Assembly: GCA_029781095.1 (NCBI GenBank)
Contig: JAKOXM010000302.1
Coordinates: 1-63,633 of the forward strand
Source: Bacteroidota bacterium
GTDB lineage: Bacteria > Bacteroidota > Bacteroidia > Chitinophagales > Saprospiraceae
Length of the DNA: 63,633 nt
Direction: 5' to 3'
The notes beneath the pieces were generated by a model. The model saw only the letters and a program-made list of their open reading frames with translations, made no database searches and was not told the origin of the DNA. Position numbers and translations under genes: made by a program. Positions 30,002 to 49,995 of the stretch are shown one piece after another (the stretch's first letter is position 1; the number at the start of each line of letters is the position of its first letter).

Positions 30002-33000
30002 TCAATCTCCTTCCTTTTTTGCTTCGTTCAGTTTCAAAACATCTTTTCGGATCAGGCTGACTTTCCGTGCATTTTCAGGACTGAGTTTCAGCGTTTTTTC
30101 TATTTCCTTGAAGTCATCTTCAAAGACTTCCCGGAAGGTGGGGAAACGATTGTCTACCCATGCTCTTTCCAGATTTTCCGTGTAAAATGCCTTGGCTTTT
30201 TGATAGTCCTGTTCGGTTTTGCCGGAAAGCAGCATTGCGATGGCTTTATTGGAAATGATGCCGTTTTTTTCTTCATTTTCCGAGGGCACGGCCAGCCCCG
30301 CGTCTGCGGCTTCCAGCCCGGCACGGAAATCGCCGCTTAATATGACGTACCAGGAATAATTCCAGTAGGCGTTGTACAATTTTGTACGCGTGCGCTCCGA
30401 AAGCGGCTCCAGATCATAGGCTTTTTTTGTCAATTCGACTTGAGACAATGAATAAATGCTCGCTTCTTTATAGTTCTGGCTTTGTACAAAATGATCGGAC
30501 CGTGTGCTGAACAGGCTGGCATAATCAAGCCAGTCGTCCACAGTCGGATTTATTTTAGTCAATTTTCGGTAGAGGGAGTCGGTAGTTGCGAATAAATTGT
30601 TGTCTTCCGGCTGCTCCAGGCAACGGTTATAAAAATAATCGGCACAGTCGCGAATCTCTTCCATGTTGGATGAAAGCAAACACTCTTCGCCATCGTATTC
30701 AATATCGAACTTTTTTCGTTGATCGGCGGAAATGCGCGGGATCACTTTGCCGCGGGCGATCTCGCTGATCTGGTTGTGTATCAGTACCGGCCCGGTACGT
30801 TTGCCGAATACGACAATGCTGTCACTGGACAAAAATGCGGCATTCACAATTTCATCGTCATCAAGGCTGAACTGTTGCAGGCAATAAACCGCCTTTTTTT
30901 CAGCCGTGGCATCCCATAAAGATGCCCTGCCGCTGCCATCGATCGTGAGCAAATACCGGTCGTCGGGTGAAAAAACGATCTTTTGTTCGAAAGTTGAACC
31001 ACTAAGGGTTTTTATGGGCTTGCGTGTTCGGGTATCCCAAATTCTTACACCGCTCCAGCTACCGCCCGACGCGAACCGATCCTCATTATTTGAAAAGGCG
31101 ATGCTTTGAATCTCCCATATCTCCTTTATCCGTGATACTGCCGAATCGCCCGTACAATCCCACAGATAATCGTAGAATGTATAATTGCTGTCTTTAACGC
31201 TCAACAGCGCATATTGACCGGTTTGGGAAAATCTGGCAGCGGTGATGGGTAACCCGAAATTATGCTCATATACCTTTTCCAGACTGAAATCATTGTTCTT
31301 GCGATATATCCGCATATTTCCCCGGTCATCGGCGGCAAGCAGTTTTTGTTCATTTGCGGAAAAATGAACGGAAATAACCGAACCGGCAAATCGATCGAGC
31401 GTAACCGTATCGCGGGTATACGGGCCGATTCGGCCTAATTTGCCGTCCCTGCAACCAACGATGAAATACCGCTCGCCCGGCTGGACGATGTCGAAAGCGG
31501 TGATGCTGTCGCTTTTATCATAAGTATCCGCCTTATAGCGTATGGTATGAATGATCGAGTCCGGCAGTTGCCAAACGTTAAGTTGAAAGTCATCATCCAG
31601 CGTTGCCACCTTCTTTTCTTTTCCTGTTCTCAGGGGCAGGCCTTGCGTGATGGAACCAAGGTGCCCGCGCAAGGTTTTTATGACGGATAATTTTTTCATG
31701 TTCCACAGACGCGCCCGGCCGTCCGCCCCGGCCGACACCATCCGCGCGGTATTGCCGAGGCGGCGTATGTCATAGATATAGCCCAAATGTCCCGAATAGG
31801 TCAGCAATGAACTTCCGTTTGCCCAGGACTGAATGATTCCCAGGGAAGTGCCTGTTATGATGGTATCGCCGGTAAAGGAAAAATCTGCGGTATAGAAATC
31901 GCCGTATCCGGCATTGTATGGCAGCGAGAACAGCGAATCTCCTGCCGCGCTGAATACCTGCAAGGGCCCCTGACCATAACAGACCAGGAATTTTCTGCCG
32001 TCGCGGGAAAACCTCACGCAATTCACAGCGCCGGGAAACCGCAGCGTTTTGGTTAACCTGCCGTTGTAGGGGCTGATTTGCACGGTGGCGTCCCAACTGC
32101 CGGTAATGACGGTCTTCCCGTCAGACGACCAGTCTACCGTGCTGACGTATCCCTTGTGGGAAATGGTATTGACGAGATTACCCTCCAAAGTCCAGATTTT
32201 GGCGGTATTATCGTAGCTGCCGGTAATGAACTTGCTACCGTCCGGGGAGAAAGCCAGGGAGCGGACCGAAGAGTTGTGTTGGCCTTCCCAGTTGTGGAGG
32301 AGAAGGCCGTTTCGATCGAACAGCAGGAATATGCTGTTCCATAAACCGGCAATAATATGCTGCCCGTCTGCGGACCAGTCGACGGCAATTACCTGGTCGG
32401 AGGCTTTGTAGGTCCAGACGACTTTTCCGGTTTTTAAATTCCAGATTTTCAACATTTTATCCAATCCTCCTGTCACGATAAGACTGTCGCCGGGCCCGTT
32501 GGCGACGCTGACGATACCTTTATGGTGCGGCAGGTTTTCGAACAACTGGCTGTTTTCGAGCGGCCAGAAGCGGAGATTGCCCTCATAATCACCGGTTACG
32601 ATCAGGCTGTCTTTGGCGATAATCGCCGCTGACCGCCCGAAAATATCGTTATCCCAGTGCATCGTGGCCACACAATCGCCGTTTCGGTTCCAGATTTTCA
32701 GCGAACGGTCGGTACTCGCAGTAAAGACGAGGTCGCTGTTTTTGAAAAAACCGACCTGTCTCACATGATTGTCGTGACCTTTTAGTGTACGGATCACTTT
32801 TCGCCGTTTCAGATCCCAGATTTTGGCGGTGTTATCCGTTGCGCCGGTTATGAAGTAATCGCCGTCCTGGGAAAATGCAGCACAGATGACACTTTGGGTG
32901 TGTCCCGGATATTCCACTATTGCATTATTCCGGAGATCGATGAGCAAAACCTGAAAAGTACGAAGGCCCACCAGGACGTGATGCCCGTCTGGCGCAAATG

Positions 33001-33862
33001 CCACGCAATTGGGCATGGCTTCATTGGGTATTGAAATTATCTGCCGGATATGGAAGCCGCTGTCGATTTTTGCTACGACGACAGAAGAATTAAGCGCAGC
33101 AACGACCACGTCGCCCTCCGGAGAAATGGCGGCATCGCTAATCGGTTCGCCCAGATTAAGGGTTGCAAGGGTATCTCCTGCCAGATTCCACAGGACTAAT
33201 TCTCCGTTACTGTCTCCCGTAAGGAGTTTATCGCTGTTTGAGGAAAAAACAATGGCATTGACATATCCTGAGCTTGTATAATCTTCCGCCAGGTCAACCC
33301 AATCGCCTTTGGAACGGTCGTACAATTTGAAAGGATCGGACTGGCAACTTACGGCAATATAGCGATCGTCGGGTGAAGCGCTTAATGCCAATATCTTGCA
33401 CTTGCAATCTATGCTTACGCTGTAATATTTAGCATCCTTTTTCTCCAGTAATTTGCGGCGTATCCCGACCGCGAGCTCATTTTTATTCTTTGTAAAGCGG
33501 GAGGCTTCGTTGGCCAGCTGGAGGGCCAGGGTAGGATTCGCATCGGCGTTGTCCAGGGCTTTATTGGTGAGTTCGGCAATTTTTGCCTGTAATTTGAACT
33601 CAACGTTCTGTTTATCAATGTTGTTCTCTTCGACCTTGATGAGCGAGTCAAGCCGCAGGGATTCTTTTTCCGGCATGTCAAGGCATGCGCCGGCTGCCTC
33701 AAAATAATAAAGTGCCGCTTTATAATCGGCGCTTACGGTATCGGCGACAAGCCCCTTGCTCAGGAAGAACGTATAGCAATTCTCGGTACCGGCTGTCTGC
33801 GATTCAGCGCGATAACAGGCAAGGACGGACAGGACGGCAAGCAGGGTGATTTTTGTTCTCAT
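30002..33862 (-). CDS. Exported (lipobox) WD40-repeat protein with TPR-like N- and C-terminal helical regions
   Basis: [16 protein letters not shown] lipobox. About 20 WD40 units are visible, for example [96 protein letters not shown] and [28 protein letters not shown]. The last 270 aa or so are helical. Confidence 0.85.
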
Positions 33863-33869
33863 TGTAAAA

Positions 33870-35948
33870 TCATTTTTGGGTGTTGTGACATTTGCCCCAT
33901 ATCCGGTCGCGCTCCACGCTGGTTTTTTCGGGCAGTACCGCCAGAATCGGGTCTATTTTTTCCTGGATGATCCGGCTTGCCCAGCCGCAATCCTGGCCTT
34001 TCTCCAAAAAGGTGTTGGCGCGGCGGAGCAGGTCTTTCAGGTCTTCCCGCATATCGCGTTCACAGAGTTCAATCCCCTGTTTGGCTTTCTCAACGTCGAT
34101 GTCGAGTGCCTTTGCCTGCCCGTATAGCTTGTGTGCTTCGATATAATTGCGTTCGGCGCGGTGATTTTCGGCAGAACTGATCAGTTGTTCGAATTTTTCA
34201 AATTTCACGGCGCCTTCCCGGCATTGCTCGATCAGCGCGTGCAATTCGGGCGCGTTGCGCCTGGGCGTATCGATTGCCAGGCATTGAGCAAACTCGTTCA
34301 TGGCGCCTTTGTATTGCTTTTGGTCGAGGTAGAGCTTTCCCTGCTGGTAGTGCTGCACGTAGTTTTGCGCCAGAATGGTATCCTTGGCAGACTGGAGCTC
34401 AATAGCGAGGCCTTTCGCGCTGTCGCGCTGCAATTGCGCCACCCGCATCAGCGAGTCGGATGCCTGCCGGGCAATCTGAAGATCGATCTGTTGCTTTTGC
34501 AGGTCCCGTTTTTGGAAAAAAGCAAGCCCGGCCAATCCCAGTGCGATAACTGCGAGCCCGAATCCGGCAATGGAGCGATAGAAGTAAGCAACCCTTTCCC
34601 GCCGGATGCGTTCCTGCCGCTCGGCTTCCGCTTCACGCCGCCGGTTTTCGATCGCTTCAGCCGTTTGTGCTTTTTCCAGCTCTTCCGCCACCCTCAGTTT
34701 TTTCGCGTCCAGGATGGGCTCGACCAGCGAATCGTGGCTTATCTCATACACAAAGCTGCCGCTCGGGTGCATGTCCACGCGCAGGAGGTGATGTTCATTG
34801 ACGAGCCTGGCCAGGGTTTGTGCCTCCACCTGGTAGTTATTCAGAATCTGGCCTTCGAAAAGGCTCAGCCTGCGGAGTTCCTGTTCGAAGATCATTCCGT
34901 CTTCTATCATAAACCGCACTTTGTGCTGATCTTCTTCAAGCAGGGAGGCGATTATGCTATCGTAATAATTTTTATATATGCTTTTGATGTCGCCCAGTTC
35001 GGCCAGTTGTATTTCCTGGCCTTCGCGCTGAACGAGGTTGTTTTCAACATATTGGCAAATGACCTGCAGCTGAGTGGTTTCAACCGGCTTGGTATTTTGC
35101 TCGGTCAGGAAGTTGAGAATGGCTTCGAGGGTATCGCCCGAATACCGGAAGGAGGGTGTGGCAAAAAGCCCCGGTTCGCTTGCCGGCCTTAAAATGGCTT
35201 CCTGTGCCTGCGCCCGGTTGAGGGGGTTCAGTTCATAGCGATTTTTCAGAATGTTCGAATAATAAGGGGCAATCCGTTCCAGCAGGCTCAGGCGGTCGGA
35301 GCGAATACCCAGAACGATTTTCAGGGGCAGCGACTGGTGTATGAAATTGATTTGTTCGGCCCCTTCCGGCGTGGATTTTATGGCCGGAAGGTTTTTGTAA
35401 AACATTTCCCTGAAAGGGGCGGGCATTTTATTGTCCAGCAAATCGGCAAACTGGCGGATAAATTCCTGCACTTCGGGCTCCGGATAAGAAAAAATCTCTT
35501 CGAACTGGTCGAACACGACCACCAGCCCGGGCAAGCTCGAACGTTGATGCCACTGGATGGATTTGAACAGTTGCCAAAGCGTTTGTTTCTCCGGATCCGG
35601 TTGTACGGTGGACAGGAATACCGTTTCCTGCTTGGTCGACGGGTCGGTGGAATAGAAGCGCAAATGCGCGAGGATGCCTTTCAGCGGGCTGGAATGCTCT
35701 TTTTGGCTATAGGCATAGAAGCGGGGAAAAAGAGCAATGAGGCCTGCTCCGGTGAATTTCGGAACGACACCTGCATTGAGCAGCGACGTTTTTCCGAGAC
35801 CCGATTTGCCGTGCAAGACAGTGAGGTCGTTTATACTGATGGTTTGGTACAGATTGACGATATCCAGTTCGCGGCCAAAGAAAACCCTGGATTGCTCTTT
35901 GGCGAATGGCTGCGAACCGGGATACCGCTTCAGTGGTTTGTTTTCCAT
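33870..35948 (-). CDS. STAND-class P-loop NTPase (nSTAND-like) with a single TM helix and TPR-like C-terminal region
   Basis: N-terminal signature YPGSQPFAKEQSRVFFGRE. Walker A is LHGKSGLGKTSLL (DNA 35787-35810) and Walker B is GLVVVFDQFEE, followed by LGIRSDRL. The TM helix is FYRSIAGFGLAVIALGLAGLAFF (DNA about 34515-34583). The 214-aa helical tail contains YKGAMNEFAQCLAID and YIEAHKLYGQAKALD. The ATG at 35948 is preferred over 36041, which overlaps the upstream gene. Confidence 0.75.
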   Translation of the reverse strand: MENKPLKRYPGSQPFAKEQSRVFFGRELDIVNLYQTISINDLTVLHGKSGLGKTSLLNAGVVPKFTGAGLIALFPRFYAYSQKEHSSPLKGILAHLRFYSTDPSTKQETVFLSTVQPDPEKQTLWQLFKSIQWHQRSSLPGLVVVFDQFEEIFSYPEPEVQEFIRQFADLLDNKMPAPFREMFYKNLPAIKSTPEGAEQINFIHQSLPLKIVLGIRSDRLSLLERIAPYYSNILKNRYELNPLNRAQAQEAILRPASEPGLFATPSFRYSGDTLEAILNFLTEQNTKPVETTQLQVICQYVENNLVQREGQEIQLAELGDIKSIYKNYYDSIIASLLEEDQHKVRFMIEDGMIFEQELRRLSLFEGQILNNYQVEAQTLARLVNEHHLLRVDMHPSGSFVYEISHDSLVEPILDAKKLRVAEELEKAQTAEAIENRRREAEAERQERIRRERVAYFYRSIAGFGLAVIALGLAGLAFFQKRDLQKQQIDLQIARQASDSLMRVAQLQRDSAKGLAIELQSAKDTILAQNYVQHYQQGKLYLDQKQYKGAMNEFAQCLAIDTPRRNAPELHALIEQCREGAVKFEKFEQLISSAENHRAERNYIEAHKLYGQAKALDIDVEKAKQGIELCERDMREDLKDLLRRANTFLEKGQDCGWASRIIQEKIDPILAVLPEKTSVERDRIWGKCHNTQK

Positions 35949-36003: not shown

Positions 36004-37134
36004 TCATTCCTGCGCAGGCCGGTTGCGCAGGTATTTGACAATATTGGAAAGCGAGCTGCGTATCAGGGCCATTTGTCTCGAATATGGATCGAAATCTATT
36101 TTGCCGAGGTTAAATTCGCGCTCAACGCCCGCAAGATTGCCTTCCTGCACAATGAGTTCCCCTTTGTCGATACCCCATCGGTCGGCCGCCTGAAGCAGTA
36201 GACTGATGGCCTCTTTCAATTCATCATTTCGTATGTGTTTTTCCACCTGATCGACCATCAGCCTTTTTATTTCTCCCGCATCCTGTATTCCGGCAGGTCC
36301 GGCGGGTCCGGGCTGGGCGGAGTGTTCGGATACCGATTTGTCCAGCTCTTTTATCAGCATCTCACTGTCTGCCTGCAGGACGATAAAAGTGGTGGAAAGC
36401 TTGTGCTCATTTTCAGGCTTCACAGGCGCGTCCTGCGTGAGAATGGAATAGTGCTCTTTTTTCGTATTCGTTCGGTCGTCTTTGTTGAGTTTGCGAATAA
36501 TAAGCGGCATATACCATTTGTCCAGATCGAAGCCGAGCAACATAAAGAATTTGGCTTCCTGCAGCACGAATTGCAGCGATACGGGCATTTGCATGTTATC
36601 GCTCAGCAGCGATACGAAAAACTTGAAAAAATCTTCATACGTAACGATCAGAGAATCCTGATTTCGGGCATCCCCGAACAGGTTGAAAAGATGCGTCACG
36701 TCGTCGGAAGATGTATTCGATGCGGGTGCATTGGGGTCTTTCGGGTGAAATTCGTGGGGAATTTTGAGGTTATCGAACGTTTTTTTCAGCATCAAATCCG
36801 GCGTGCAGGATATGATGGCCCTGAACGGAAGCCGGACGATCGTTTCATAAATTTCACCCGGTTCGAGGGACTGGTAATGTTCGGAAAGGTGCCAGCGGAG
36901 ATCCAGACTTCGCCCGGGATCGGGGTTTTTCAGGATAAAAAGATTATCGAAGTCATTGTCGATGTCTTTCAGCAGATCGGGCGCATTTTCTGAAAGGTAG
37001 TTCCGGACGCTGTCTCCCGCCGGAATTCCTTCCCGGGTGGTTCCAAAATGGGGTCCCAGAAAAAGAATAAATTTCTTCTCAAGGATATTTTTGGTGTGTT
37101 GCTTGATGAAGACGGAAATAGATTTGGTATCCAT
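36004..37134 (-). CDS. SIR2-fold-like (SIR2_2-like, apparently degenerate) protein with a C-terminal helical adaptor-like domain
   Basis: The block order resembles SIR2_2: KKFILFLGPHFG (versus lvlFlGAGvS), LPFRAIISCTPDLMLKKTF (versus viTTNYDdllE), THLFNLFGDARNQDSLIVTYEDF (versus vklHGs...lvlteedY), and FFMLLGFDLDKWYMPLIIRKL (versus lFlGySlsDpdl). A Pro/Gly linker follows, then a roughly 90-aa helical module ...IRNDELKEAISLLLQAADRW...GNLAGVEREFNLGKIDFDPYSRQMALIRSSLSNIV. Confidence 0.4.
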   Translation of the reverse strand: MDTKSISVFIKQHTKNILEKKFILFLGPHFGTTREGIPAGDSVRNYLSENAPDLLKDIDNDFDNLFILKNPDPGRSLDLRWHLSEHYQSLEPGEIYETIVRLPFRAIISCTPDLMLKKTFDNLKIPHEFHPKDPNAPASNTSSDDVTHLFNLFGDARNQDSLIVTYEDFFKFFVSLLSDNMQMPVSLQFVLQEAKFFMLLGFDLDKWYMPLIIRKLNKDDRTNTKKEHYSILTQDAPVKPENEHKLSTTFIVLQADSEMLIKELDKSVSEHSAQPGPAGPAGIQDAGEIKRLMVDQVEKHIRNDELKEAISLLLQAADRWGIDKGELIVQEGNLAGVEREFNLGKIDFDPYSRQMALIRSSLSNIVKYLRNRPAQE

Positions 37135-37311: not shown

Positions 37312-38739
37312 CTATTCTCCGAAAATCTCCTTCAGTTTCTCTCCCAATTGTTCGCCGCGCAGGTTGCGGACGATGATCTTGCCTTCCCGGTCGATCAGCA
37401 GGGTTTGGGGAATGGACGTTACGGAGTAAAGGGCGGCGTGTTCGCTTTGCCAGCCTTTCAGATCGCTGATATGGTGCCACGGAAGGCCATCCTGCTGGAT
37501 CGCCTTGCGCCATGCGCTGATATCGCGGTCGAGGCTGACGCCGAGCACGTCGAAACCTTTGTCCTTGTATTTTTTGTAATTCTCCACCACGTTGGGGTTC
37601 TCCCGGCGGCAGGGACCGCACCAGCTGGCCCAGAAATCGACCATGACGATCTTTCCGCGCAGTTGCTTGAGGGAATAATTGCTGCTGTCGGGCGTCATGC
37701 CGATGAGGTCGGGCGCTTCGAAACCGGGCATGAAGGTGCCGGCTTTCTTGATGTCGTATTCCAGTCGGGCCACTTCACCCAGGCTGTTGTTGCGGTACAA
37801 ATTGAGATAGTCTGATGTATAGGCCGTGCACAACTGGCCGTTGGTGGTTTTCAGTCCCGAGATAGCGCCGCCGAGCGCCATGCGGTATGCTTTCGATTTT
37901 GCCGGTATCTGCGACAATTGCAGATCGATTGCCTGCTTTACTTTTTCCGAAGAGGCGGCGATCTGCGCGAGATACGTGACGTATTTTTCAAAACTGTTGA
38001 AAACGTCGGGGATATTATCGAAACCGGTGCTGTTGAAATCGGCGTTGCGGAAATAGTTTTTTGTGTAAAAGTCAACTTCGGTTGTGGCCGCCGATTTTTC
38101 TGCAAGGTACTCCGGCGTAATATACAGGCTTGCCATGCGCCACAGCATCGGATTGGCTGTTTTCAACGAATCGAGATACCTGCTCTTCGACTTGGCCAGC
38201 TGTTTGATGCTTTCTTCCACGGGTGTGCGCGCGACAGCGCCCAGGTTTCCATCCGAATTATAGTATTTGGTGCGCAGCACCTCGCTTTCCGATTGAAAAT
38301 CGGCAATCTGCCGCTGTACGTTTTCCAGGGCTTTGTTGGCGGGCGAATTGACCGTGCGGCCTTTTTCCATAAAATTGCAATTGGCCCAGAGCGTCACTTC
38401 CTTCTCCTGCCCGAGCACGACCTTCGCCATTGCGTTGTCGCCCAGTCCGACGCCGTAAAAACGCGGATCGGACATGGGTATCCGGAACACGAAAGCACTG
38501 TCGGGCATACGGCGGCCGGCGCGTGCCACCACCCGGTTGGCCAGGCCAAGCATCTCGTACAGATTGACGCTGTCCGTATTGGCGGGTACGCCCCATATTT
38601 TGCAGACAAGCGTGACTTTATCGTTGGCGGCAGCGGCGGTAGCAGCCGCTTTAGGTGCCGGTGTGCGCGTTTTGGCGGTTTTCTGAGCCTGCAAGGCAAG
38701 CACGGGAAGCAGGAACAGTAGAATAAGCAGTTTTTTCAT
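37312..38739 (-). CDS. TlpA-family thiol:disulfide oxidoreductase (thioredoxin fold) with a long N-terminal domain
   Basis: Signal peptide and C-terminal thioredoxin domain VMVDFWASWCGPCRRENP. Confidence 0.85.
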   Translation of the reverse strand: MKKLLILLFLLPVLALQAQKTAKTRTPAPKAAATAAAANDKVTLVCKIWGVPANTDSVNLYEMLGLANRVVARAGRRMPDSAFVFRIPMSDPRFYGVGLGDNAMAKVVLGQEKEVTLWANCNFMEKGRTVNSPANKALENVQRQIADFQSESEVLRTKYYNSDGNLGAVARTPVEESIKQLAKSKSRYLDSLKTANPMLWRMASLYITPEYLAEKSAATTEVDFYTKNYFRNADFNSTGFDNIPDVFNSFEKYVTYLAQIAASSEKVKQAIDLQLSQIPAKSKAYRMALGGAISGLKTTNGQLCTAYTSDYLNLYRNNSLGEVARLEYDIKKAGTFMPGFEAPDLIGMTPDSSNYSLKQLRGKIVMVDFWASWCGPCRRENPNVVENYKKYKDKGFDVLGVSLDRDISAWRKAIQQDGLPWHHISDLKGWQSEHAALYSVTSIPQTLLIDREGKIIVRNLRGEQLGEKLKEIFGE

Positions 38740-40791: not shown

Positions 40792-40987
40792 TTTGTCAAA
40801 ATGCGAACATTCTTTTGTAATATTTACCGGGCGGCATGGTGGTTTTACTATCATTGCAGCCATTTTCAATTGAGTCCTTGACCAATAAAATAATCGAAAA
40901 CTCGGAGAATTCGGGCGGAGCCAGTGAGAAATGATGAATTCCTCGCCATCTGTTGCGCTCAAATGCACACTTTTTAACTACTGTTCT

Positions 40988-43900
40988 ATGGTACGTTCTT
41001 TACTCTTAACTTTTGCTTTGCTTCTCAGTGCCGGAGCCGTGCTTGCCCAAACCGTGTTGTCGGGCAAGGTGTCGGGCGACGACGGTGAGGCGCTTATTGG
41101 GGCAACCGTCAAAGTGTTGCGCGGCGCCGACTTTGTGCGCGGTACGATTACCGATTACGACGGCAATTACCGGGTAGCCCCGCTGGACCCCGGCACGTAC
41201 GATGTGGAAATTTCATACACGGGTTTTGCTGTACAGCGGATTACCGGTGTGAAAGTGCTCACAAACCAGATCACCTTTCTCGACGCCACGATGTCCAGTA
41301 ATACGGTCATTCAGGGTGTGGAAGTGACGGCGTTCAAGGTGCCCCTGATCGAACAGGATAAAACATCGGGCGGTCAGACGCTCACATCCGACCAGATCAA
41401 AAACCTGCCTACCAGAAGCGTAAACGCCATTGTAGCCACCACTGCCGGCACCACGTCCATTGACGGCGGCGCGGTGAACATCAAAGGCTCGCGCTCCAAC
41501 GCCACCAACTATTATATCGACGGTATTCGCGTGTCGGGCTCTTTGCCGCCGGTACAGGATATCGAGCAGTTGCAGGTGATCACAGGCGGTCTCGGCGCCG
41601 AGTACGGCGACGTTACGGGCGGTGTCATCTCCCTGATCACCAAAGGCCCGGCCGGCGAATACCACGGCGGCATCGAGGTGGAAAACTCCCACGGCCTCGA
41701 CCCCTACGGATGGCTGCTCGCGACGGGCAACCTCAGCGGACCGATCTGGAAAAAGAAATTTGAAGACGGCTCGTCGCGCACGGTCGTCGGTTTCCGTCTG
41801 TCGGGACAGTACTGGACCCAGAAAGACGACAGCCCCTCGGCACTTCCGGTTTACAAGGCAAAACCGGACGTCGAAGCGCGCCTCGTCGAGCACCCGTTGT
41901 CCAAAATCAACGGAAATATCGTATCCACCGCCGAATCGTTTACGAATGACAGCGTGGATGTGCTGAATTACCGCCCGAACGAAAATCGCAAGGATCTGGA
42001 CCTGACGGGAAAACTGGACTTCCGGCTGGCGGATAATGTTGATTTCAGCGTAACCGGTACGTTCAAGGACCAGCAGGACAAATTTACGCCCGGAGGCTGG
42101 CGTTTGCTCAACTCTGATAACAACCCTACGAACTACGGACGCCGGTACCGCGGAATCGCACGCTTCCGCCACCGCCTCGGCAGTTCGGACAACAGTGGTA
42201 GCGACGCCAACCGCGTGAGCATTTCCAATGCAAACTATCAGTTGCAGCTGGGTTTTGAACGCGCCGACAATCATACATATGACCCGCGCCATGAAGACCG
42301 GCTCTTCGAATACGGTTATATCGGACGTTTTAAAGTCGATCTTATGCCGATTGCCGGTCCGGATGATACCGGAAACAAATATATACACCTGGGTAATCTC
42401 GAATCCTTTGCCGGCTTCGAACCTGGTTATGTCAACAGTGCCGGACAATTGGTCAATCCCAACCCGGGATTGAACGCCTACAATGAATTTGCGCTGACCG
42501 ATCTCGGAAACCCCGGCGCGGCATTCAACTCCTACCTCGCGCAGAACGGTCGTTTTTCTACCGTATATGACGATATCTGGAGCGGTATGCACAGCAATAC
42601 CAGTCTGGTCTATAACAGCTATACCAGAAGCCAAAGCGATGTTCTTACCATTACGGCCACCGCGGGCTTCGACCTGAGACTCGGCCGTTCCGGTACGCAC
42701 AGCATCCAGTTCGGTCTGCTTAACGAGCAGCGCACCGACCGCAGTTATGGCGTAGCGCCATTCGGCCTGTGGGCGCTTGCCAACCAGTCTATCAACGAAC
42801 ATTTCAACGGCCTCGATTCCACCAAGGTAATCGGGAAGTTTTTCTGGCCGCAGATTCAGGACTCCGTAGACCGCTACGCATATTCCATTCTGAGTGCTGA
42901 CAAACTGGGCGATGACAAGTTTTACAAGAAAGTCCGGGAAGGACTCAACGTGCCCATCGAGACCTGGCTTAACTCGGACGAACTGACCCCCGAGCAACTG
43001 AGTCTCGGCATGTTCTCCGCACGTGAATTAAATGACCAGGGCTATGTGGGTTACTACGGCTATTCCTACACGGGTGAAAAGCTCGCACAGAACGTCACGT
43101 TCAACGACTTTTTTACCAGCAGGGACGCCGATGGCATCCGTGATTTTCCGGTGGCTCCGCTCCGCCCGCTGTACCAGGCCGCTTTCATCAAGGACAAATT
43201 CACGTTCAACAAGATGATCTTCAGCCTTGGTCTGCGCGTCGAACGTTTTGACCTGAATACCAAGGTGATGCGTGATCCGTACTCTTTATACAAGGTTGCT
43301 ACGGCAAAGGAATACTATGCACAGAATTCCGCCCCGCCCCGCCCCGCCAATGTTGGCGATGACTTTAAAGTGTATATCGAAGGGCAGAACGATCCGTCAC
43401 CAAAGGCCTTCCGCAACGGTGATACCTGGTATTTTGCCGACGGTCGCCAGGCCAATGACGGTAACCTTATTTTCGGCGGCGGTGTCGTGACGCCCCTGCT
43501 CAGCGATACCATCTCGGGCGACAATATCTTCGATACGCGTTTCGATCCCAACACGGCGTTTGAAGACTACACCCCGCAGGTCAACTGGCTGCCCCGTCTG
43601 GCGTTCTCTTTCCCGATCTCGGAAGATGCCAACTTTTTTGCGCACTACGATATCCTCGTGCAGCGCCCGCCGAGCAGCTGGCAGGTGACGCCGCTGGACT
43701 ATATGTACTTCTACACGCCAAACCGCACAACGTCCAACAATGCCAATCTGAAGCCGGAACGCGTGGTGGATTATGAAGTCGGTTTCCAGCAGAGGCTCAA
43801 TCAAAACTCGGCGCTCAAATTTTCGGCCTACTACCGCGAAATGCGCGATATGATCCAGAGTCGCACCATCCTGTACGTGCCGACGATCGGCCAATACGAG

Positions 43901-44626
43901 ACCTCGGGCAACATCGACTACGGCACTGTGAAAGGGTTTACCGTACAGTACGACCTGCGCCGTATTCAGAATGCAGAATTGCGTCTGGCATATACCCTGC
44001 AATTCGCAGACGGTACGGGCTCCAATGCCACTTCGCAGCGCGGCCTCACCTCACGCGGCAATATTCGCGCGCTTTTCCCCCTCGATTTCGACGAGCGGCA
44101 TAACCTGAATGCCATCCTCGACTATCGTTTTGACGAAGGGAAGCGCTACAACGGACCTCGTGTTGCCGGTAAAGACATTTTGTCCAACTTCGGCGTAAAT
44201 ATCCAGGCCTACACAGTTTCCGGACGTCCGTACACGGCCAAGCAACGCTCCATCCGTTTCGGCGGCGAAGGCACCCTCGGTGCCATCAACGGCAACCGGC
44301 TGCCATGGCGTTTCAACATCGACCTTCGTGTGGACAAAACCTTTAACCTGGCATCAGAAGGTAAAAACCCGCTCAACCTCAACGTATACTTCCGCGTGGC
44401 AAACCTGCTCAATCGCAAGAACATCATCGGGGTTTACTCCGCTACGGGTTCTCCGACGGACGACGGTTACCTGGCAACTGCAGAAGGCCAAACGATCGTG
44501 CAAAGTATCGCAGATACGGGTCGCAATTCGGAGGCATTCCTGGATGCATATTCCTGGGTGGTGCGCAACGGCGGCAACTTTACACAACCGCGCCGCCTGT
44601 ATGTAGGCGCTGTATTCGGGTTCTGA
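40988..44626 (+). CDS. TonB-dependent-receptor-like outer-membrane protein with an N-terminal CarboxypepD_reg domain
   Basis: Signal MVRSLLLTFALLLSAGAVLAQ. CarboxypepD_reg region LSGKVSGDDGEALIGATVKV...DYDGNYRV. Plug-like region QIKNLPTRSVNAIVATTAGT...IKGSRSNATNYYIDGIRV. The terminal sequence is VGAVFGF, ending in an aromatic residue. Confidence 0.75.
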   Translation: MVRSLLLTFALLLSAGAVLAQTVLSGKVSGDDGEALIGATVKVLRGADFVRGTITDYDGNYRVAPLDPGTYDVEISYTGFAVQRITGVKVLTNQITFLDATMSSNTVIQGVEVTAFKVPLIEQDKTSGGQTLTSDQIKNLPTRSVNAIVATTAGTTSIDGGAVNIKGSRSNATNYYIDGIRVSGSLPPVQDIEQLQVITGGLGAEYGDVTGGVISLITKGPAGEYHGGIEVENSHGLDPYGWLLATGNLSGPIWKKKFEDGSSRTVVGFRLSGQYWTQKDDSPSALPVYKAKPDVEARLVEHPLSKINGNIVSTAESFTNDSVDVLNYRPNENRKDLDLTGKLDFRLADNVDFSVTGTFKDQQDKFTPGGWRLLNSDNNPTNYGRRYRGIARFRHRLGSSDNSGSDANRVSISNANYQLQLGFERADNHTYDPRHEDRLFEYGYIGRFKVDLMPIAGPDDTGNKYIHLGNLESFAGFEPGYVNSAGQLVNPNPGLNAYNEFALTDLGNPGAAFNSYLAQNGRFSTVYDDIWSGMHSNTSLVYNSYTRSQSDVLTITATAGFDLRLGRSGTHSIQFGLLNEQRTDRSYGVAPFGLWALANQSINEHFNGLDSTKVIGKFFWPQIQDSVDRYAYSILSADKLGDDKFYKKVREGLNVPIETWLNSDELTPEQLSLGMFSARELNDQGYVGYYGYSYTGEKLAQNVTFNDFFTSRDADGIRDFPVAPLRPLYQAAFIKDKFTFNKMIFSLGLRVERFDLNTKVMRDPYSLYKVATAKEYYAQNSAPPRPANVGDDFKVYIEGQNDPSPKAFRNGDTWYFADGRQANDGNLIFGGGVVTPLLSDTISGDNIFDTRFDPNTAFEDYTPQVNWLPRLAFSFPISEDANFFAHYDILVQRPPSSWQVTPLDYMYFYTPNRTTSNNANLKPERVVDYEVGFQQRLNQNSALKFSAYYREMRDMIQSRTILYVPTIGQYETSGNIDYGTVKGFTVQYDLRRIQNAELRLAYTLQFADGTGSNATSQRGLTSRGNIRALFPLDFDERHNLNAILDYRFDEGKRYNGPRVAGKDILSNFGVNIQAYTVSGRPYTAKQRSIRFGGEGTLGAINGNRLPWRFNIDLRVDKTFNLASEGKNPLNLNVYFRVANLLNRKNIIGVYSATGSPTDDGYLATAEGQTIVQSIADTGRNSEAFLDAYSWVVRNGGNFTQPRRLYVGAVFGF

Positions 44627-44730: not shown

Positions 44731-47700
44731 ATGCGTACTTACAGACTTTGGATAGCAGCTTTGCTGGCCAGTATTGCCTGGAGCGGAGCCTTTGCGCACG
44801 CACCGGTCGGTGCGAGTCGGCCGAGCAAAACCAACAAAGTAAAATACCGCGATGTGTGTGCCAACTCCGAGGATCAGATCGATCAGGAGATCAACAACGT
44901 GCGTGCCCGTTTGCTGGGCGGCGGCGACTGCTGGTGGGACTTTAACGACGGTCGTTACATCGTTCCGAAGGTAGATCCGGCCTCCGGTCAGCGCGAGGTT
45001 TCTTCCATTTTCGCCGGCTCGGTATGGCTCGGCGGACTTGACCCTGCCGGCAACCTGAAACTGGCATGCCAGGACTATCGTGCCGGTGGTAAAAACGACT
45101 TCTGGCCCGGCCCGCTCAACGAACTCGGCCTTACCGAGCGCGCTATTTGCGACAACTGGGACCGTCACTTTCGCGTCACCGGCAATGAGGTTCGCCGCCA
45201 CCTGGCAAACCTGTCTGAAGGCCGCCTCGACCCGGCCGATATTCCGCGCGGTGTGAAAGGCTGGCCTGCACGTGGCAATCCTTATTTCGTGGATGTATGG
45301 GGTTTTGACCTCCCTTACACCCAACAGGGACTTGCCGGCTTTTTCGATGCTGACGGCGACGGCGATTATGATCCGCTTAAAGGTGATTATCCTTCTATCG
45401 ATATCCGGGGATGTCCGCTTGACCGGTACCCGGATGAGATGATCTTCTGGATTTACAACGACCAGGGCGGTGGCGCCGAACACGCGCGTACGCAAGGCGA
45501 TGCGATCCAGATGGAAGTTCAGGTGCAGTCATTCGGCTACGTCACCACCGACGAACTGAACGATATGACGTTCCAGCGCTACAAACTGATCAACCGTGCC
45601 ACGGCACGTATCGACTCCACGTTCTTTGCCATGTGGGTCGACCCTGATCTGGGCTGCTATACGGATGACTATATCGGTTGCGATACGACGAAAAACCTGA
45701 TGTACGTGTACAATCAGGATGCTACAGACGGCCAGCCGGGCTGTAACTGCGACCAGGGCGTGGCAACCTATTGCGACAAAATTCCGATTCTTGGCGTCGA
45801 CTATTTCCGCGGACCGCTGGATACTTTCGCCAACGAGATCGGTATGTCCTCGTTCGTTTATTATAACAACCCCGGCGTAGGCAACCCGCTCCCCGGTACC
45901 ACGGACCCGGATTTGCCGGCTGAGTTTTATAATTATCTTACGGGTACGTGGCGCGACGGCTCCCCCTTCCAGTTTGGTGGAAGCGGATATCAAAGCGGTG
46001 GCGCTACTATTAAATACGCCTTCCCCAACCCTCCGGGCGACCAGACCGGTTGGTCGATGTGTACGGCAGGTCTGCCATACAGCGACCGCCGGACCCTTCA
46101 GGCTTCCGGACCCTTCTCGCTGAAACCCGGCGCCGTCAACGAGCTGATCATCGGTGTGCCGTGGGTACCGGATATCACGTATCCATGCCCCGATCTGGAA
46201 GGCTTGTTCCGCGCCGACAAACTGGCCCAGGGCTTGTTTGACAACTGCTTCGAACTGCTCGATGGTCCGGACGCTCCGAATGTGGACTGGATCGAACTGA
46301 ACCAGGAGATCATTGCGGTACTGACTAACGTTGCGCCGTCAAACAACCTTAATGAGCAATACCGGCAGCAGGACTTTCTCGCACCCGATGTTTTGAAACA
46401 AAGCACCGACTCGGCTGTACTGGAAAGCACCTACTACAAGTTCGAGGGATACAAGATTTACCAACTGTCAGACCCGAACGTGTCGAACGCCGAGTTTGAA
46501 ACGAACCCGGACAAGAGCCGGATCGTATACGAGGTGGATCTCAAAAATAAAGTGAGCAAGGTGTATAACTGGATTGAAGCGCTGGATCCGAACTCGGGCA
46601 ACAAGGTCTACTTCCCGGAATTAAAAGTTGAAGGAGAGGACAAAGGTATCCGCCACACTTTCAAAATTTCTGACGACAAGTTTGCCCTCGGTAATGACAG
46701 GCGGCTGATCAACCACAAAAAATATTACTTCGCAGTCATTGCCTATGCCTATAATAACTGGGGTGTTTTCGATCCTCTTGCATCACCGGCTACCGGCCAG
46801 CAGCGCCCCTACCTGCCGGGTCGCAGAGGCTCCGACGGCGGCCAGGTGGAGATCATTACAGTGATCCCGCGTCCTGTCGTCGATCAGTCGCTTCAGTCTG
46901 CTTATGGCGACGGCGTTGTGATAACCCGTTTGGAAGGGGCAGGGGCAGGCGGCCAGTTCCTCGATCTGGATGATGCTACCCGCGACGCGCTTTGGTCCGG
47001 TGCGCTCACCGGCGACACTGTGCTGACGTACAAACTGGGCCACGGCCCGCTGGCTGTTACCATCTTCAATCCTTTCGAGGTAAAAGACGGTGACTACGAG
47101 CTGAGCATTGTCGACAGTGACCTGGGAGACACCAAACTGGATAAAAATGCGCGCTGGCAATTGCGGAAACTGCCCGACGGGCCGGTAATTGCCTCTGACA
47201 GAAGTATCGAAACGGTAAACGAGCAGATATTCGCCGATTACGGGTTCTCCGTTACCGTGGCACAAACCGCCGCCCCGGGCAGTAATAACGACGACCGCAA
47301 CGGCGCTATCGGCGGCGAGGTCAGTTACACGAACCCCGATGAGCAGTGGTTACTGGGGTTCCCGAACCAGGATCTCGGCTTTTTCAACTATGTGAAAACG
47401 AGTTCCATCGCACAGCCCGATTATGATCCCGACGGCGACGGCATACCAATGGATCCGAAGCAGGGCCTGAGTACGATCGGCAACGGCTGGTTCGTACCTT
47501 ATACCCTGTGCGACTGGCGTTTGTCCGCTCTCAGCCCGACCCAAAGGATGATCACGCCGGCCTGGACTGAAAAAGGCGGCTCATCACAAGGGCAGCTGAA
47601 CAACAGCGCCAACGGCAGTGAAACGACGCGACGCGCCAAACTCGCTGCCTTGCCCAACGTGGATATCGTCCTTACCAAGGACAAATCCAAGTGGAGTCGT

Positions 47701-48798
47701 TGCATGGTCGTGGAATCTGCTTCCTACTACTACACCAGTCCGGCGAATGAATATCCGAAAGACCAGTCCCTGAAGACACAAAGTCCGGCCAACAGGACCC
47801 GTCAGATGTTTGACGTCCGCTACCAGTTGTCGGTGGGTAAGGACGGGAAACCGGATGGCGCCGTCAACCCGGCCGGAGCAGGCATACCGAGCGCACAGGT
47901 CGGACAGCCTGTATACGGTATGGGCTGGTTCCCCGGATATGCGCTCGATGTTGAAACCGGTCAGCGTCTCAATATCTTCTTTGGCGAAAACTCCTGCTAC
48001 TCTTCCGATATTGATCCGACCTATACCGGTCGCGACATGTTGTGGAACCCGACGGAGCAGGTAGTCCGCCAGGACAACGGAGGCTTGCCGTTTGACTACT
48101 ACGACCTTGTATTGGGTGGCCAGCACTGGGTATATGTGATGTACACGCCTTACGACTCCTGCGAAGCAGTACGCCGCAAGTTCACACCCGAATTCAACGG
48201 TAACCCGGGCATCGCCAAGATCAGCCAGGTTAAAAACATCGCATGGGCAGGTATGATACAACTGGCTCCCGGAAACAAGATGAAGTCGATCGACGAGGGC
48301 CTTATCCCGAACGATGTTATCGTGAAACTGCGGGTGGAAAGCCCGTACGAAACCTGGTATCAGGATGACAATAGCGGCAAGAAAACCGGTCATCCCAAGT
48401 ACCAGTTCCGGGTGCAGAACCAGCAACCCAACGGACTTGATGGTATCCAGATAGCCAACGCGCTGGACTCCGTCAAAGCGGTGCCCAATCCGTATTACGG
48501 CTTCTCGCAGTATGAAACGTCGCAGTTCACCAACACTGTGAAGATCACAAACCTTCCAGGCAAGTGCACCGTAACGATCTACTCGCTCGATGGCAAATTT
48601 ATTCGCCAGTATCAGCGCGACGAAACGTACGCTCCTTATCAGCAGATCACACCTGCGATTGAGTGGGATATGAAAAACAATAAGGGCATACCCGTTGCCA
48701 GCGGCGTTTACCTCATACAGTTACAAGCGCCGGGAATGGGTGAGCGAACGATCAAATGGTTCGGTATAGGCCGACAGTTTGACCCGTCGGGATTGTAA
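44731..48798 (+). CDS. Large secreted protein with a T9SS-type C-terminal sorting domain, unknown function
   Basis: Signal MRTYRLWIAALLASIAWSGAFA. The last 90 aa or so, VKAVPNPYYG...VKITNLPGKCTVTIYSLDGKFIRQY...GVYLIQLQAPG...IKWFGI, match the type-A CTD pattern (PNP ... v.IydlxGk ... GvYfv). Confidence 0.6.
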   Translation: MRTYRLWIAALLASIAWSGAFAHAPVGASRPSKTNKVKYRDVCANSEDQIDQEINNVRARLLGGGDCWWDFNDGRYIVPKVDPASGQREVSSIFAGSVWLGGLDPAGNLKLACQDYRAGGKNDFWPGPLNELGLTERAICDNWDRHFRVTGNEVRRHLANLSEGRLDPADIPRGVKGWPARGNPYFVDVWGFDLPYTQQGLAGFFDADGDGDYDPLKGDYPSIDIRGCPLDRYPDEMIFWIYNDQGGGAEHARTQGDAIQMEVQVQSFGYVTTDELNDMTFQRYKLINRATARIDSTFFAMWVDPDLGCYTDDYIGCDTTKNLMYVYNQDATDGQPGCNCDQGVATYCDKIPILGVDYFRGPLDTFANEIGMSSFVYYNNPGVGNPLPGTTDPDLPAEFYNYLTGTWRDGSPFQFGGSGYQSGGATIKYAFPNPPGDQTGWSMCTAGLPYSDRRTLQASGPFSLKPGAVNELIIGVPWVPDITYPCPDLEGLFRADKLAQGLFDNCFELLDGPDAPNVDWIELNQEIIAVLTNVAPSNNLNEQYRQQDFLAPDVLKQSTDSAVLESTYYKFEGYKIYQLSDPNVSNAEFETNPDKSRIVYEVDLKNKVSKVYNWIEALDPNSGNKVYFPELKVEGEDKGIRHTFKISDDKFALGNDRRLINHKKYYFAVIAYAYNNWGVFDPLASPATGQQRPYLPGRRGSDGGQVEIITVIPRPVVDQSLQSAYGDGVVITRLEGAGAGGQFLDLDDATRDALWSGALTGDTVLTYKLGHGPLAVTIFNPFEVKDGDYELSIVDSDLGDTKLDKNARWQLRKLPDGPVIASDRSIETVNEQIFADYGFSVTVAQTAAPGSNNDDRNGAIGGEVSYTNPDEQWLLGFPNQDLGFFNYVKTSSIAQPDYDPDGDGIPMDPKQGLSTIGNGWFVPYTLCDWRLSALSPTQRMITPAWTEKGGSSQGQLNNSANGSETTRRAKLAALPNVDIVLTKDKSKWSRCMVVESASYYYTSPANEYPKDQSLKTQSPANRTRQMFDVRYQLSVGKDGKPDGAVNPAGAGIPSAQVGQPVYGMGWFPGYALDVETGQRLNIFFGENSCYSSDIDPTYTGRDMLWNPTEQVVRQDNGGLPFDYYDLVLGGQHWVYVMYTPYDSCEAVRRKFTPEFNGNPGIAKISQVKNIAWAGMIQLAPGNKMKSIDEGLIPNDVIVKLRVESPYETWYQDDNSGKKTGHPKYQFRVQNQQPNGLDGIQIANALDSVKAVPNPYYGFSQYETSQFTNTVKITNLPGKCTVTIYSLDGKFIRQYQRDETYAPYQQITPAIEWDMKNNKGIPVASGVYLIQLQAPGMGERTIKWFGIGRQFDPSGL

Positions 48799-48942: not shown

Positions 48943-49995
48943 ATGAATCATAAATATACATTTCTGCTTCCCTGGATGATACTGCTATTGTCGGGCGCGG
49001 CATTTGCCGGCAACCCTGATCGCCAGGGTGAGGCGGGCGCGAACCAATTGCTGGTCAATCCATGGGCGCGCAGTGCAGGATTGCACACCATGGGCACCGC
49101 CAATGTCATCGGCACGGAAGCGATGTTTCTGAATGTAGCCGGCCTTTCGCGCATCAATAAAACGGAGGTGCAACTCGGGCATGCCCGTTACCTCGTCGGT
49201 TCTGATATCAACATAAATGCGCTCGGCTTCGGTCAGCGGATCGGCAAGGGTGGCACCTTCGGTATCAGTCTGGTAGCCTTCGATCTGGGCGACTTCGACT
49301 ATACGACGGAAGAAGTGCCGGAAGGCTCGGGCGCTACTTTCAGCCCTTCGTTTTTTAACATGGGCATTTCTTACGCACACCTTTTTGCCAATAAGGTATC
49401 GGTAGGCATTACCGCCAAGTTTGTGAATGAAAGCATTACCAATGCGCGCGCAAGCGCCATGGCGCTCGATGCAGGCGTTCAATATGTTACGGGCGAAAAG
49501 GATAATTTTAAATTCGGTATTTCGCTGCGCAACATCGGTACGAAGATGCGTTTTCAGGGCGAGGGCCTTTCAAAACCCCTCCCCAACCCGGGCCCGACTT
49601 TCCCGTATAACAACACGTATTACGAAAGGTCTGCCGGTTACGAACTGCCGTCTCAACTGAACATCGGCCTTTCCAACGACTGGCTGCTGGGCGGCGTGAG
49701 CCGGCTCACGATGGTGCTGAACTTTACGTCCAACGCTTTCTCGCGCGACCAGATCGGCGGTGGCCTCGAGTTTGCCCTCGGTCAGAATTTTGCCCTGCGC
49801 GCCGGTTACAAATATGAATTCGATGCGGCTCCGGGCAGCACGGAAGCGACCCTCGACAACGGTTTCAGCGGCGGCCTGACCGTCTCGCTGCCGGTGAAAA
49901 AAGGCTCCGACACCCGTGTTTCCCTTGATTATGCATACCGGAATACCGAAATTTTCCAGGGAATTCACAACATTGGCCTGCGACTCGACCTGTAA
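48943..49995 (+). CDS. PorV/PorQ-family outer-membrane beta-barrel protein (T9SS-associated)
   Basis: Signal peptide, then GNPDRQGEAGANQLLVNPWARSAGLHTMGTANV...AMFLNVAGLS, and alternating beta-strand patterns to a C-terminal ...IGLRLDL. Confidence 0.55.
   Translation: MNHKYTFLLPWMILLLSGAAFAGNPDRQGEAGANQLLVNPWARSAGLHTMGTANVIGTEAMFLNVAGLSRINKTEVQLGHARYLVGSDININALGFGQRIGKGGTFGISLVAFDLGDFDYTTEEVPEGSGATFSPSFFNMGISYAHLFANKVSVGITAKFVNESITNARASAMALDAGVQYVTGEKDNFKFGISLRNIGTKMRFQGEGLSKPLPNPGPTFPYNNTYYERSAGYELPSQLNIGLSNDWLLGGVSRLTMVLNFTSNAFSRDQIGGGLEFALGQNFALRAGYKYEFDAAPGSTEATLDNGFSGGLTVSLPVKKGSDTRVSLDYAYRNTEIFQGIHNIGLRLDL

Follow-up and report, generated by a model that had tools for sequence, protein, structure and literature searches.

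A stretch of 63,633 nucleotides (nt) from a Saprospiraceae bacterium (Bacteroidota; GenBank assembly GCA_029781095.1, contig JAKOXM010000302.1), the whole of which is hereafter called the window, contains three consecutive genes, here named A, B and C, that read in the same direction on the minus strand with intergenic gaps of 55 and 7 nt (Table 1). Gene A encodes a SIR2-like protein with a C-terminal effector-associated domain (EAD) of the EAD11 type, gene B an NTPase of the nSTAND1 family followed by a transmembrane (TM) helix and a tail, and gene C a large WD40 protein with an N-terminal signal peptide. Judged from sequence, A-B-C would be a three-gene operon coding for a STAND receptor that spans the membrane, an explanation that we regard, taken as a whole, as probable and still well short of certain. 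The likely start of B is the ATG at 35948, as the family-wide motif RYPGxxPF begins seven residues after it, and with the other candidate start, the TTG at 36041, B would run into gene A. A promoter and terminator scan gave counts at chance level and no boundary internal to the operon, with a sigma-70 consensus that may not fit Bacteroidota.

Table 1. Genes of the cassette and their predicted features, in coordinates of the window (aa, residues of the respective protein; AF2, AlphaFold2)
Feature	Coordinates	Strand	Description or basis
Gene A	36004..37134	-	376 aa; degenerate SIR2-like domain and C-terminal EAD11; first gene of the operon
SCTPD, aa 109-113 of A	36796..36810	-	Position of the SIR2 catalytic Asn (TTNYD in ThsA); Asn replaced by Thr111
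NLFGD, aa 151-155 of A	36670..36684	-	Position of the SIR2 catalytic His (KMHGD in ThsA); His replaced by Phe153
EAD11, aa 295-369 of A	36028..36252	-	Four-helix module; PF19964, 39.6 bits (cut-off 26)
Gene B	33870..35948	-	692 aa; nSTAND1 NTPase, TM helix and TPR-like tail
N-terminal motif RYPGSQPF, aa 8-15 of B	35904..35927	-	50-sequence alignment
nSTAND1 NTPase module, aa 9-411 of B	34716..35924	-	Pfam PF20703, 103.5 bits (cut-off 27.1)
Walker A GKSGLGKT, aa 47-54 of B	35787-35810	-	Inside the NTPase module
Walker B LVVVFDQFEE, aa 142-151 of B	35496-35525	-	Inside the NTPase module
Winged helix, aa 365-403 of B	about 34734-34937	-	AF2: helix-turn-helix and beta-hairpin
Long charged helix, aa 406-455 of B	34584..34733	-	Predicted cytoplasmic; AF2 helix 406-457; Arg-rich juxtamembrane end
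Single TM helix FYRSIAGFGLAVIALGLAGLAFF, aa 456-478 of B	34515..34583	-	Hydrophobicity; conserved position in relatives
Predicted periplasmic stalk helix, aa 479-542 of B	34323..34514	-	AF2: continuous helix 466-542 with the TM helix
Predicted periplasmic TPR-like six-helix bundle, aa 546-691 of B	33876..34313	-	AF2 pLDDT about 90-97; TPR matches
Gene C	30002..33862	-	1286 aa; exported WD40 partner (predicted); start codon 7 nt past the stop of B
Signal peptide of C, aa 1 to about 22	33797..33862	-	Basic n-region and 11-residue hydrophobic core
Cys29-x30-Cys60 TPR-like hairpin of C	33683..33778	-	Mature N-terminus; cysteine pattern in partners
WD40 beta-propeller region of C, aa about 156-991	30890..33397	-	About 20 blades; Pfam WD40 E 1.1e-70
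C-terminal helical domain of C, aa about 992-1286	30005..30889	-	No Pfam match; 26-77% identity among orthologues

The same gene order, with a SIR2-like gene, an nSTAND1-TM-tail gene and a gene for a WD40 protein of about 1300 aa, is kept at four other loci (L001, L002, L003 and L005). The cassette shows 87% identity in L002 and 46% in L001, a metagenome-assembled genome of the Saprospiraceae, both with the same AhpC/TSA-like neighbour on one side; identity falls to 40-41% in L003 and L005, where the contexts are unrelated and, in L003, the genes abut or overlap. Among cassettes of this type conservation extends to the tail of B and to the helical domains at the two ends of C. At 34% identity, the more distant locus L004 retains the SIR2-EAD11 gene and the NTPase and encodes a 544-aa exported hairpin-WD40 protein further downstream.

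The protein encoded by B presents the order of parts that is usual in STAND proteins, this is, an NTPase, a helical domain, a winged helix and then the sensor region, with the membrane helix placed between switch and sensor. An earlier note, made from the letters of the sequence alone, had described here a STAND NTPase followed by a winged-helix-like region, a strongly charged segment, a 23-residue hydrophobic helix at 34515-34583 and a TPR-like tail of 214 aa, without an N-terminal signal peptide. All these elements were recovered, the charged segment verbatim at residues 421-455 and the helix exactly at those positions, and the N-terminus of B is not hydrophobic. The AF2 model (mean pLDDT 88.7) runs through the NTPase, the helical domain, the winged helix and a long helix (residues 406-457), then shows a low-confidence break at residues 456-466, and continues as one helix (466-542) that leads to a six-helix bundle (546-691). 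When the N-terminal 430-470 residues were compared by Foldseek, the relatives found were Orc1/Cdc6, CED-4, Apaf-1, the NB-ARC of plant resistosomes, the STAND-TPR protein 6mfv and EfAvs5 (9jap); the fold search of B was dominated by the NTPase module and gave nothing specific on the tail. By sequence, the Protein Data Bank (PDB) holds no solved relative of the NTPase, that is, no nSTAND1 structure, and only the tail matches TPR proteins there.

Residues G50, G52 and K53 of Walker A and D147, Q148, E150 and E151 of Walker B are invariant in the alignment of 50 diverse homologues, and these invariant residues along with the STAND/AAA+ fold indicate that the NTPase is of the active type and predicted to be catalytically competent. 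Within the RYPGxxPF motif, R8, Y9, G11 and F15 are invariant while P10 and P14 are kept in at least 90% of the sequences; as a speculation, the motif may be a docking site for the SIR2-like subunit. No EAD or effector precedes the NTPase, since the nSTAND1 match begins at residue 9 and the alignment of the clade contains no N-terminal extension.

The hydrophobic segment FYRSIAGFGLAVIALGLAGLAFF reaches a maximum Kyte-Doolittle mean of 2.33 over 19 residues and a summed Hessa biological hydrophobicity of -1.2 kcal/mol, against +6.0 for the next best segment of B, and 36 of 2000 shuffles of the protein (1.8%) were as hydrophobic. The earlier note had also called for a survey of this helix among homologues. 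Counting as conserved any hydrophobic segment with a Kyte-Doolittle mean of at least 1.6 directly after the NTPase module, we found it in 114 of the 120 best homologues from a search of 5.8 billion proteins, where most exceptions are truncated, and in about 117 of 125 further cluster representatives, obtained with phmmer by comparing the NTPase module alone with 1.84 billion cluster representatives (15,399 matches at E<=1e-3 and 1,484 at E<=1e-30). A third set comprised 80 loci from GTDB genomes, from which 77 open reading frames (ORFs) extend more than 40 residues past the NTPase match; the helix is present in 74 of these, distributed over four phyla, and two of the three exceptions (L014 and L016) have a weaker hydrophobic stretch at the equivalent place. 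The hosts of these loci belong to Saprospiraceae, Lewinellaceae, other Bacteroidota, Acidobacteriota, Gamma- and Betaproteobacteria and Verrucomicrobiota. Relatives with 26% to 99% identity keep the position of the helix, which is in our reading of the sequences a trait of the family beyond a chance feature.

What follows the helix differs among members. Short tails, TPR repeats, WD40 repeats, an FGE-sulfatase module with C-type-lectin fold and a BNR propeller plus PDZ domain (the last two added in L038) were all found after it, as well as a YfdX-like stretch with a score under the Pfam cut-off. PDZ, YfdX-like, BNR propeller and FGE/C-type-lectin domains occur mostly in extracytoplasmic proteins. 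Predicted membrane attachment is, then, the constant of the family and the outside module is its variable part. In B itself the tail, searched alone against Pfam, matches TPR_2 (E 1.6e-5; 25.1 bits, slightly under the cut-off of 27 bits), and the family profile matches consensus TPR proteins of the PDB with E 5e-18, in line with the TPR-like helices announced for it.

Regarding the side of the membrane on which each part lies, B has the features of a type II signal anchor: one span of at least 19 residues, no cleavable N-terminal signal and positive-inside flanks. The 15 residues that flank the helix contain on average 6.3 Lys and Arg (K+R) on the NTPase side vs 3.1 on the tail side, and of 114 homologues 99 have more K+R on the NTPase side, 8 have the same number on both sides and 7 have fewer, in keeping with the positive-inside rule across the family. 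Five of the six cysteines of B are in the tail, against one in the 455-aa cytoplasmic part, and Cys576, Cys629, Cys654 and Cys687 are conserved in the closest subfamily; the tail cysteine pairs were considered as a disulfide signature, for which support was only partial.

The partner encoded by C offers independent information on this question. Its propeller region was matched by many propeller families besides WD40, with matches that run to about residue 991. At its N-terminus, the hydrophobic core extends over 11 residues (Kyte-Doolittle mean 2.75), not enough to cross a membrane, and signal peptides were found in all the 17 separate WD40 or hairpin partners compared (C and 16 orthologous or analogous proteins). 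A lipoprotein reading, with Cys16 in VLAC as the lipobox, was considered and rejected because this cysteine is absent from the orthologue with 87% identity, which makes a type I signal peptide more likely. We also found that the cysteine pair of the first hairpin is complete in 14 of these 17 partners and completely missing in the other 3, with no case of a single cysteine; this both-or-neither pattern is the one expected of a disulfide. On these sequence features C is predicted to be a Sec-exported periplasmic protein, which bears out the export of the WD40 partner claimed in the earlier note.

The relation between this partner and the NTPases was then counted in the 54 complete loci with enough downstream sequence, taking as short the NTPases of 780 aa or less. 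A separate exported hairpin-WD40 partner accompanies 9 of 14 short NTPases and none of 40 long ones, while 11 of those 40 carry WD40 repeats fused after the helix in the same chain. BLASTP of the terminal domains of C against the fused nSTAND1-WD40 proteins returned nothing; a more sensitive hidden Markov model (HMM) found, in two fused proteins (L014 and L016), the N-terminal hairpin motif of the partner right after the helix. These counts, together with the hairpins of L014 and L016, indicate that the module placed after the helix in the fused forms is the same one that is placed after a signal peptide in the split forms.

Considering the positive-inside bias, the exported partners, the cysteine pair of their hairpin, the complementarity between fused and split forms and the types of domain found after the helix, an N-in/C-out topology of B, with the NTPase in the cytoplasm and the tail in the periplasm, is very likely, and this comparison across relatives supports the orientation proposed at first from B alone. 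It would be very improbable indeed that the segment does not span the membrane, or that the topology is inverted and the tail cytoplasmic. Such a reading might draw on the low AF2 confidence at residues 456-466 and on the fraction of shuffles that were equally hydrophobic; it conflicts with the conserved position of the segment, with the strong bias of charges and with the extracytoplasmic hallmarks of the partner and of the fused sensors. In addition, it is well established that export is not to be expected of a folded 455-aa N-terminal domain that lacks a signal peptide.

Another possibility is that the helix is a mere membrane tether, with a true trigger in the cytoplasm or within the membrane and with the tail and the WD40 protein being structural or unrelated. 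A few members contain two, four or seven membrane segments (P0017, P0038, P0042, P0046, P0051, P0084, P0131, P0134 and L038:5986-9462), and the first seven of them combine two membrane helices with hardly any domain on the outside, as would be expected of a tether. However, most members place 100-1400 residues of classic ligand-binding repeats after the helix, the exported partner is tightly linked to B, abutting or overlapping it in L003, and its distribution is complementary to that of the fused sensors, as counted above, which leaves the tether an improbable explanation. We consider that the cassette probably senses the cell envelope rather than the cell interior.

Gene A completes the cassette. 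Its product matches SIR2_2 (PF13289, E 6.4e-10) and EAD11 (E 5.4e-10) in Pfam, and a profile made from 34 sequences of the NTPase-linked A family matches the ThsA structures 6lhx and 8bto with E about 5e-14, a value by which the homology to SIR2 and ThsA is taken as real. In at least 56 of the 77 loci, the gene just upstream of the NTPase is an A homologue. The HMMER alignments of A to ThsA (7uxt and 6lhx) place Thr111 at the position of N112 and Phe153 at that of H152, and show LGP in place of GAG in the first glycine-rich motif. Mutagenesis of ThsA is reported to have shown that N112 and H152 are both required for activity, and the structures 8bto, with TTAYD at the Asn position, and KomC(H146N) are consistent with a catalytic need for both residues. 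The loss of the catalytic Asn and His extends to 64 of 65 linked upstream orthologues, in all four phyla; the only one with intact motifs (TTNFD and KLHG; L043) is a 285-aa protein with no extra domain.

The homology to ThsA-type SIR2 could suggest an effector role for A itself, as a SIR2 NADase switched on by the STAND assembly in the manner of Avs5 or ThsA, in which case the cassette would be a simple abortive-infection module that depletes NAD+. The position of A directly upstream of B indeed mimics a split SIR2-STAND Avs5, whose structure 9jap is among the fold matches. This would require an enzyme in which both catalytic residues have been replaced and the GAG motif changed, through a loss that is ancient and conserved; moreover, TIR or EAD11 is appended when the SIR2 domain is degenerate and absent in the sole intact case. 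We judge an NADase role quite improbable. In this respect the assumption of a classical STAND defence protein, the kind to which B was compared in the earlier note, acting with a SIR2 NADase effector is weakened, as the SIR2-like partner lacks both catalytic residues.

With the catalytic Asn and His lost, A looks like a coupling adaptor and not a canonical NADase effector. Among 34 degenerate A-type proteins the C-terminal domain is EAD11 in 17 and TIR_2 in 10, and TIR_2 takes the place of EAD11 in other phyla (L080, L047, L085, L059, L022, L015, L037, L038 and L034). The simplest reading of these sequences would be that the SIR2-like domain is a constant NTPase-coupling subunit, which leaves the output to a TIR domain on the same chain or to effectors that EAD11 brings in. 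EAD coupling has been proposed to rely on the same EAD being present on the core NTPase and on its effectors (Kaur et al. 2020). The role of A as an adaptor fits this idea in view of two divergent neighbours of related cassettes, an EAD11-CHAT protein, i.e. a caspase-like protease (L027:3773-4873, minus strand), and a protein with EAD11 and another, uncharacterised domain (L018:2329-3162, minus strand), which are candidate effectors in trans.

Taking these predictions together, a possible mechanism may be outlined. B would be a type II single-pass receptor of the inner membrane, with the NTPase and the winged helix in the cytoplasm, from which the chain would proceed through the charged helix, the TM helix and a stalk helix of about 64 residues to the periplasmic TPR-like bundle. 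C, exported by Sec, would supply in trans the repeat sensor that paralogous systems fuse after the TM helix, in the form of about three WD40 propellers flanked by helical domains, and may contact the tail of B. An envelope ligand or disturbance would be bound by C and/or by the tail, and this binding would shift the oligomeric state of B via the stalk, the membrane helix and the charged helix. Through this change of oligomer the cytoplasmic NTPase modules would become able to assemble in an NTP-dependent manner and, once assembled, would engage A, and the EAD11 of A may recruit EAD11-tagged effectors encoded elsewhere, such as an EAD11-CHAT protease of the L027 type, with an immune or cell-suicide output.

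Several observations weigh against this proposal. A single helix cannot signal as a monomer, so that the oligomerization step is assumed. The tail cysteines are not conserved beyond the closest subfamily, in which two members show odd patterns. The AF2 model of A, built from 7 sequences, has a pLDDT of 61, with its lowest values over most of the SIR2-like part (below 50 at residues 173-284), and is too poor to judge a pocket, with the helices of EAD11 (residues 286-370) modelled at about 84-90. No second EAD11 was found in B or C by BLASTP and Pfam, nor in any ORF of the window with a custom HMM; the homotypic arrangement of EADs is thus missing within the window, no partner of the adaptor is apparent here, and the effector may be encoded in another part of the genome. 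Among the approximately 25 further genes of the window that were scanned with Pfam there is no other defence gene, and B and C have no meaningful match to PADLOC models, the best one (E 0.012) being confined to the P-loop and the Avs models giving no match. Relatives were not found on the viral contigs of IMG/VR, which also led us to reject a phage or plasmid origin, and one flank is syntenic with the orthologue of 46% identity (L001); this synteny and the absence from viral contigs are atypical behaviour for a defence island.

These last points, together with the housekeeping surroundings and an enzyme-like partner that is catalytically degenerate, are what would be expected if the system served non-immune signalling at the envelope or between cells, for example if filamentous Saprospiraceae-like bacteria used it to report envelope stress, contact with kin or a developmental cue. 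A 2026 preprint also describes defence and non-defence STAND clades as interspersed. Among the alternatives this is the strongest one, although we think it unlikely, for the coupled TIR, EAD11 and EAD11-CHAT modules are typical of conflict and cell-suicide systems according to Kaur et al. Furthermore, the cassette appears in unrelated contexts and has a patchy distribution over four phyla, suggestive of horizontal mobility, and the variety of its sensors resembles a diversification of the antigen-receptor type.

A membrane-spanning receptor of this kind, with an immune role, can be compared with several known systems. The name nSTAND1 was given by Kaur et al. (eLife 2021, PMC8195603) to one of the NTPases of STAND-FGS conflict systems, which have N-terminal EADs or effectors and are frequent in filamentous or multicellular bacteria. 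Their systems share with ours the NTPase family, the FGE-sulfatase (FGS), WD40 and TPR sensors and the presence of EADs and TIR; by contrast, the NTPase described here has no N-terminal domain, the adaptor resides on a separate degenerate SIR2-like protein and part of the sensor is detached from the chain and secreted. The text of that paper makes no mention of a membrane helix between NTPase and sensor or of a SIR2-like partner.

An Avs protein is one soluble chain that resides in the cytoplasm and binds phage proteins there. The cassette resembles Avs5 and other Avs systems in its SIR2-type module, its STAND NTPase and fold and the logic of a C-terminal repeat sensor, and differs from them in that the SIR2 module is a separate and degenerate gene, a membrane helix lies between switch and sensor, and none of the Avs models is matched. 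The SIR2-SLOG NADase ThsA of Thoeris, to whose structures 6lhx and 8bto the N-terminal domain of A comes closest in the structural database, differs from A by the N112 and H152 equivalents and by its SLOG domain, both missing in A, and the window contains no ThsB.

For membrane-associated members, Kibby et al. (preprint, 10.1101/2022.07.19.500537) suggested that a subset of STAND proteins may recognize intramembrane or periplasmic signals. Their 'TM regions' class of bNACHT proteins, however, has NACHT instead of nSTAND1 and usually multiple membrane segments, sometimes inside the NTPase, and the text does not describe a conserved architecture in which one span goes together with an exported partner. 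Dore et al. (PNAS 2024, PMC10907252) discussed a cytoplasmic vs periplasmic placement of STAND-CLec (C-type lectin) proteins diversified by diversity-generating retroelements (DGRs), and judged their nSTAND1 example, DGR 6, which carries EAD8, likely cytoplasmic. Those targets combine nSTAND1 or NACHT with an FGE/C-type-lectin sensor, unlike the TPR and WD40 sensor found here. No reverse transcriptase gene of a DGR turned up in the Pfam scans of the window genes, which were not a dedicated search for one. FGE and WD40 are among the STAND sensors listed in a 2026 survey, which frames recognition as intracellular.

The topology had been called unusual in the earlier note. This holds with respect to the characterised Avs and bNACHT proteins, whereas within the nSTAND1 clade the arrangement is the standard one. 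As to membrane-spanning nSTAND1 proteins or a SIR2-like/nSTAND1 pair, only general remarks were found in the literature, and in the texts of these works, whose figures or supplements may depict such a case, there is no account of a conserved single-pass nSTAND1 with an exported WD40 subunit and a degenerate SIR2-like adaptor. On the sequences compared, the cassette is a real, conserved and apparently undescribed variant of nSTAND1 conflict systems.

Around the cassette, the rest of the window is of housekeeping, Bacteroidota-like character, with phosphoenolpyruvate carboxykinase, proline dehydrogenase, a TonB-type receptor, PorV and type IX secretion, and cytochrome oxidase genes. The immediate neighbour is a 475-aa exported AhpC/TSA-thioredoxin-like protein (37312-38739, minus strand), conserved at the same place in L002 and L001, which may be a matter of simple synteny. 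The 63.6-kb window has no tRNA genes and no Rfam family at the gathering threshold. Additionally, directly upstream of the PorV-like gene of type IX secretion (48943-49995, plus strand) there is a 1355-aa ORF without a Pfam match (44731-48798, plus strand), preceded by a 1231-aa ORF (40931-44626) whose L001 orthologue has TonB-receptor Plug and CarboxypepD_reg domains. A GT4 glycosyltransferase (5163-6305, plus strand) matches PF20706, 'GT4 in conflict systems', with E 3e-11 vs E 5e-43 for Glycos_transf_1, and is probably an ordinary enzyme.

To our knowledge, every characterised bacterial STAND/NLR-like immune sensor detects its trigger inside the cell. The clade to which B belongs may, as a tentative and rather doubtful proposal, follow instead the logic of surface pattern recognition, with an outside sensor, a single helix, an NLR-type switch and TIR or EAD effectors connected through a pseudo-SIR2 adaptor. 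In functional terms this would be analogous to Toll-like receptors, in which, likewise, one membrane helix joins a repeat sensor on the outside to an output of the death-fold or TIR type on the inside, and some sister cassettes do carry TIR; unlike in Toll-like receptors, a STAND NTPase is interposed here, and there is no homology of sensor or chain. In the sister cassettes with TIR_2, the predicted chain of outside sensor, membrane helix and STAND switch would have TIR as its output. A degenerate SIR2-like subunit with swappable TIR and EAD11 domains is also a warning against annotating these proteins as NADase effectors.

If the clade does read the periplasm, STAND switches would work across a membrane, a mechanism for which there is no solved precedent, and the cassette would be a concrete candidate for the detection of phage or competitor attack at the level of the envelope, in an evolutionary parallel to eukaryotic surface receptors with TIR outputs. 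Molecules from phages, predators or competitors could in that case be detected at the envelope before, or without, their entry into the cytoplasm. Furthermore, with 1,484 clusters at E<=1e-30 in at least four phyla, such systems would constitute a widespread and uncharacterised branch of bacterial immunity that joins Toll-like and NLR-like features in one.

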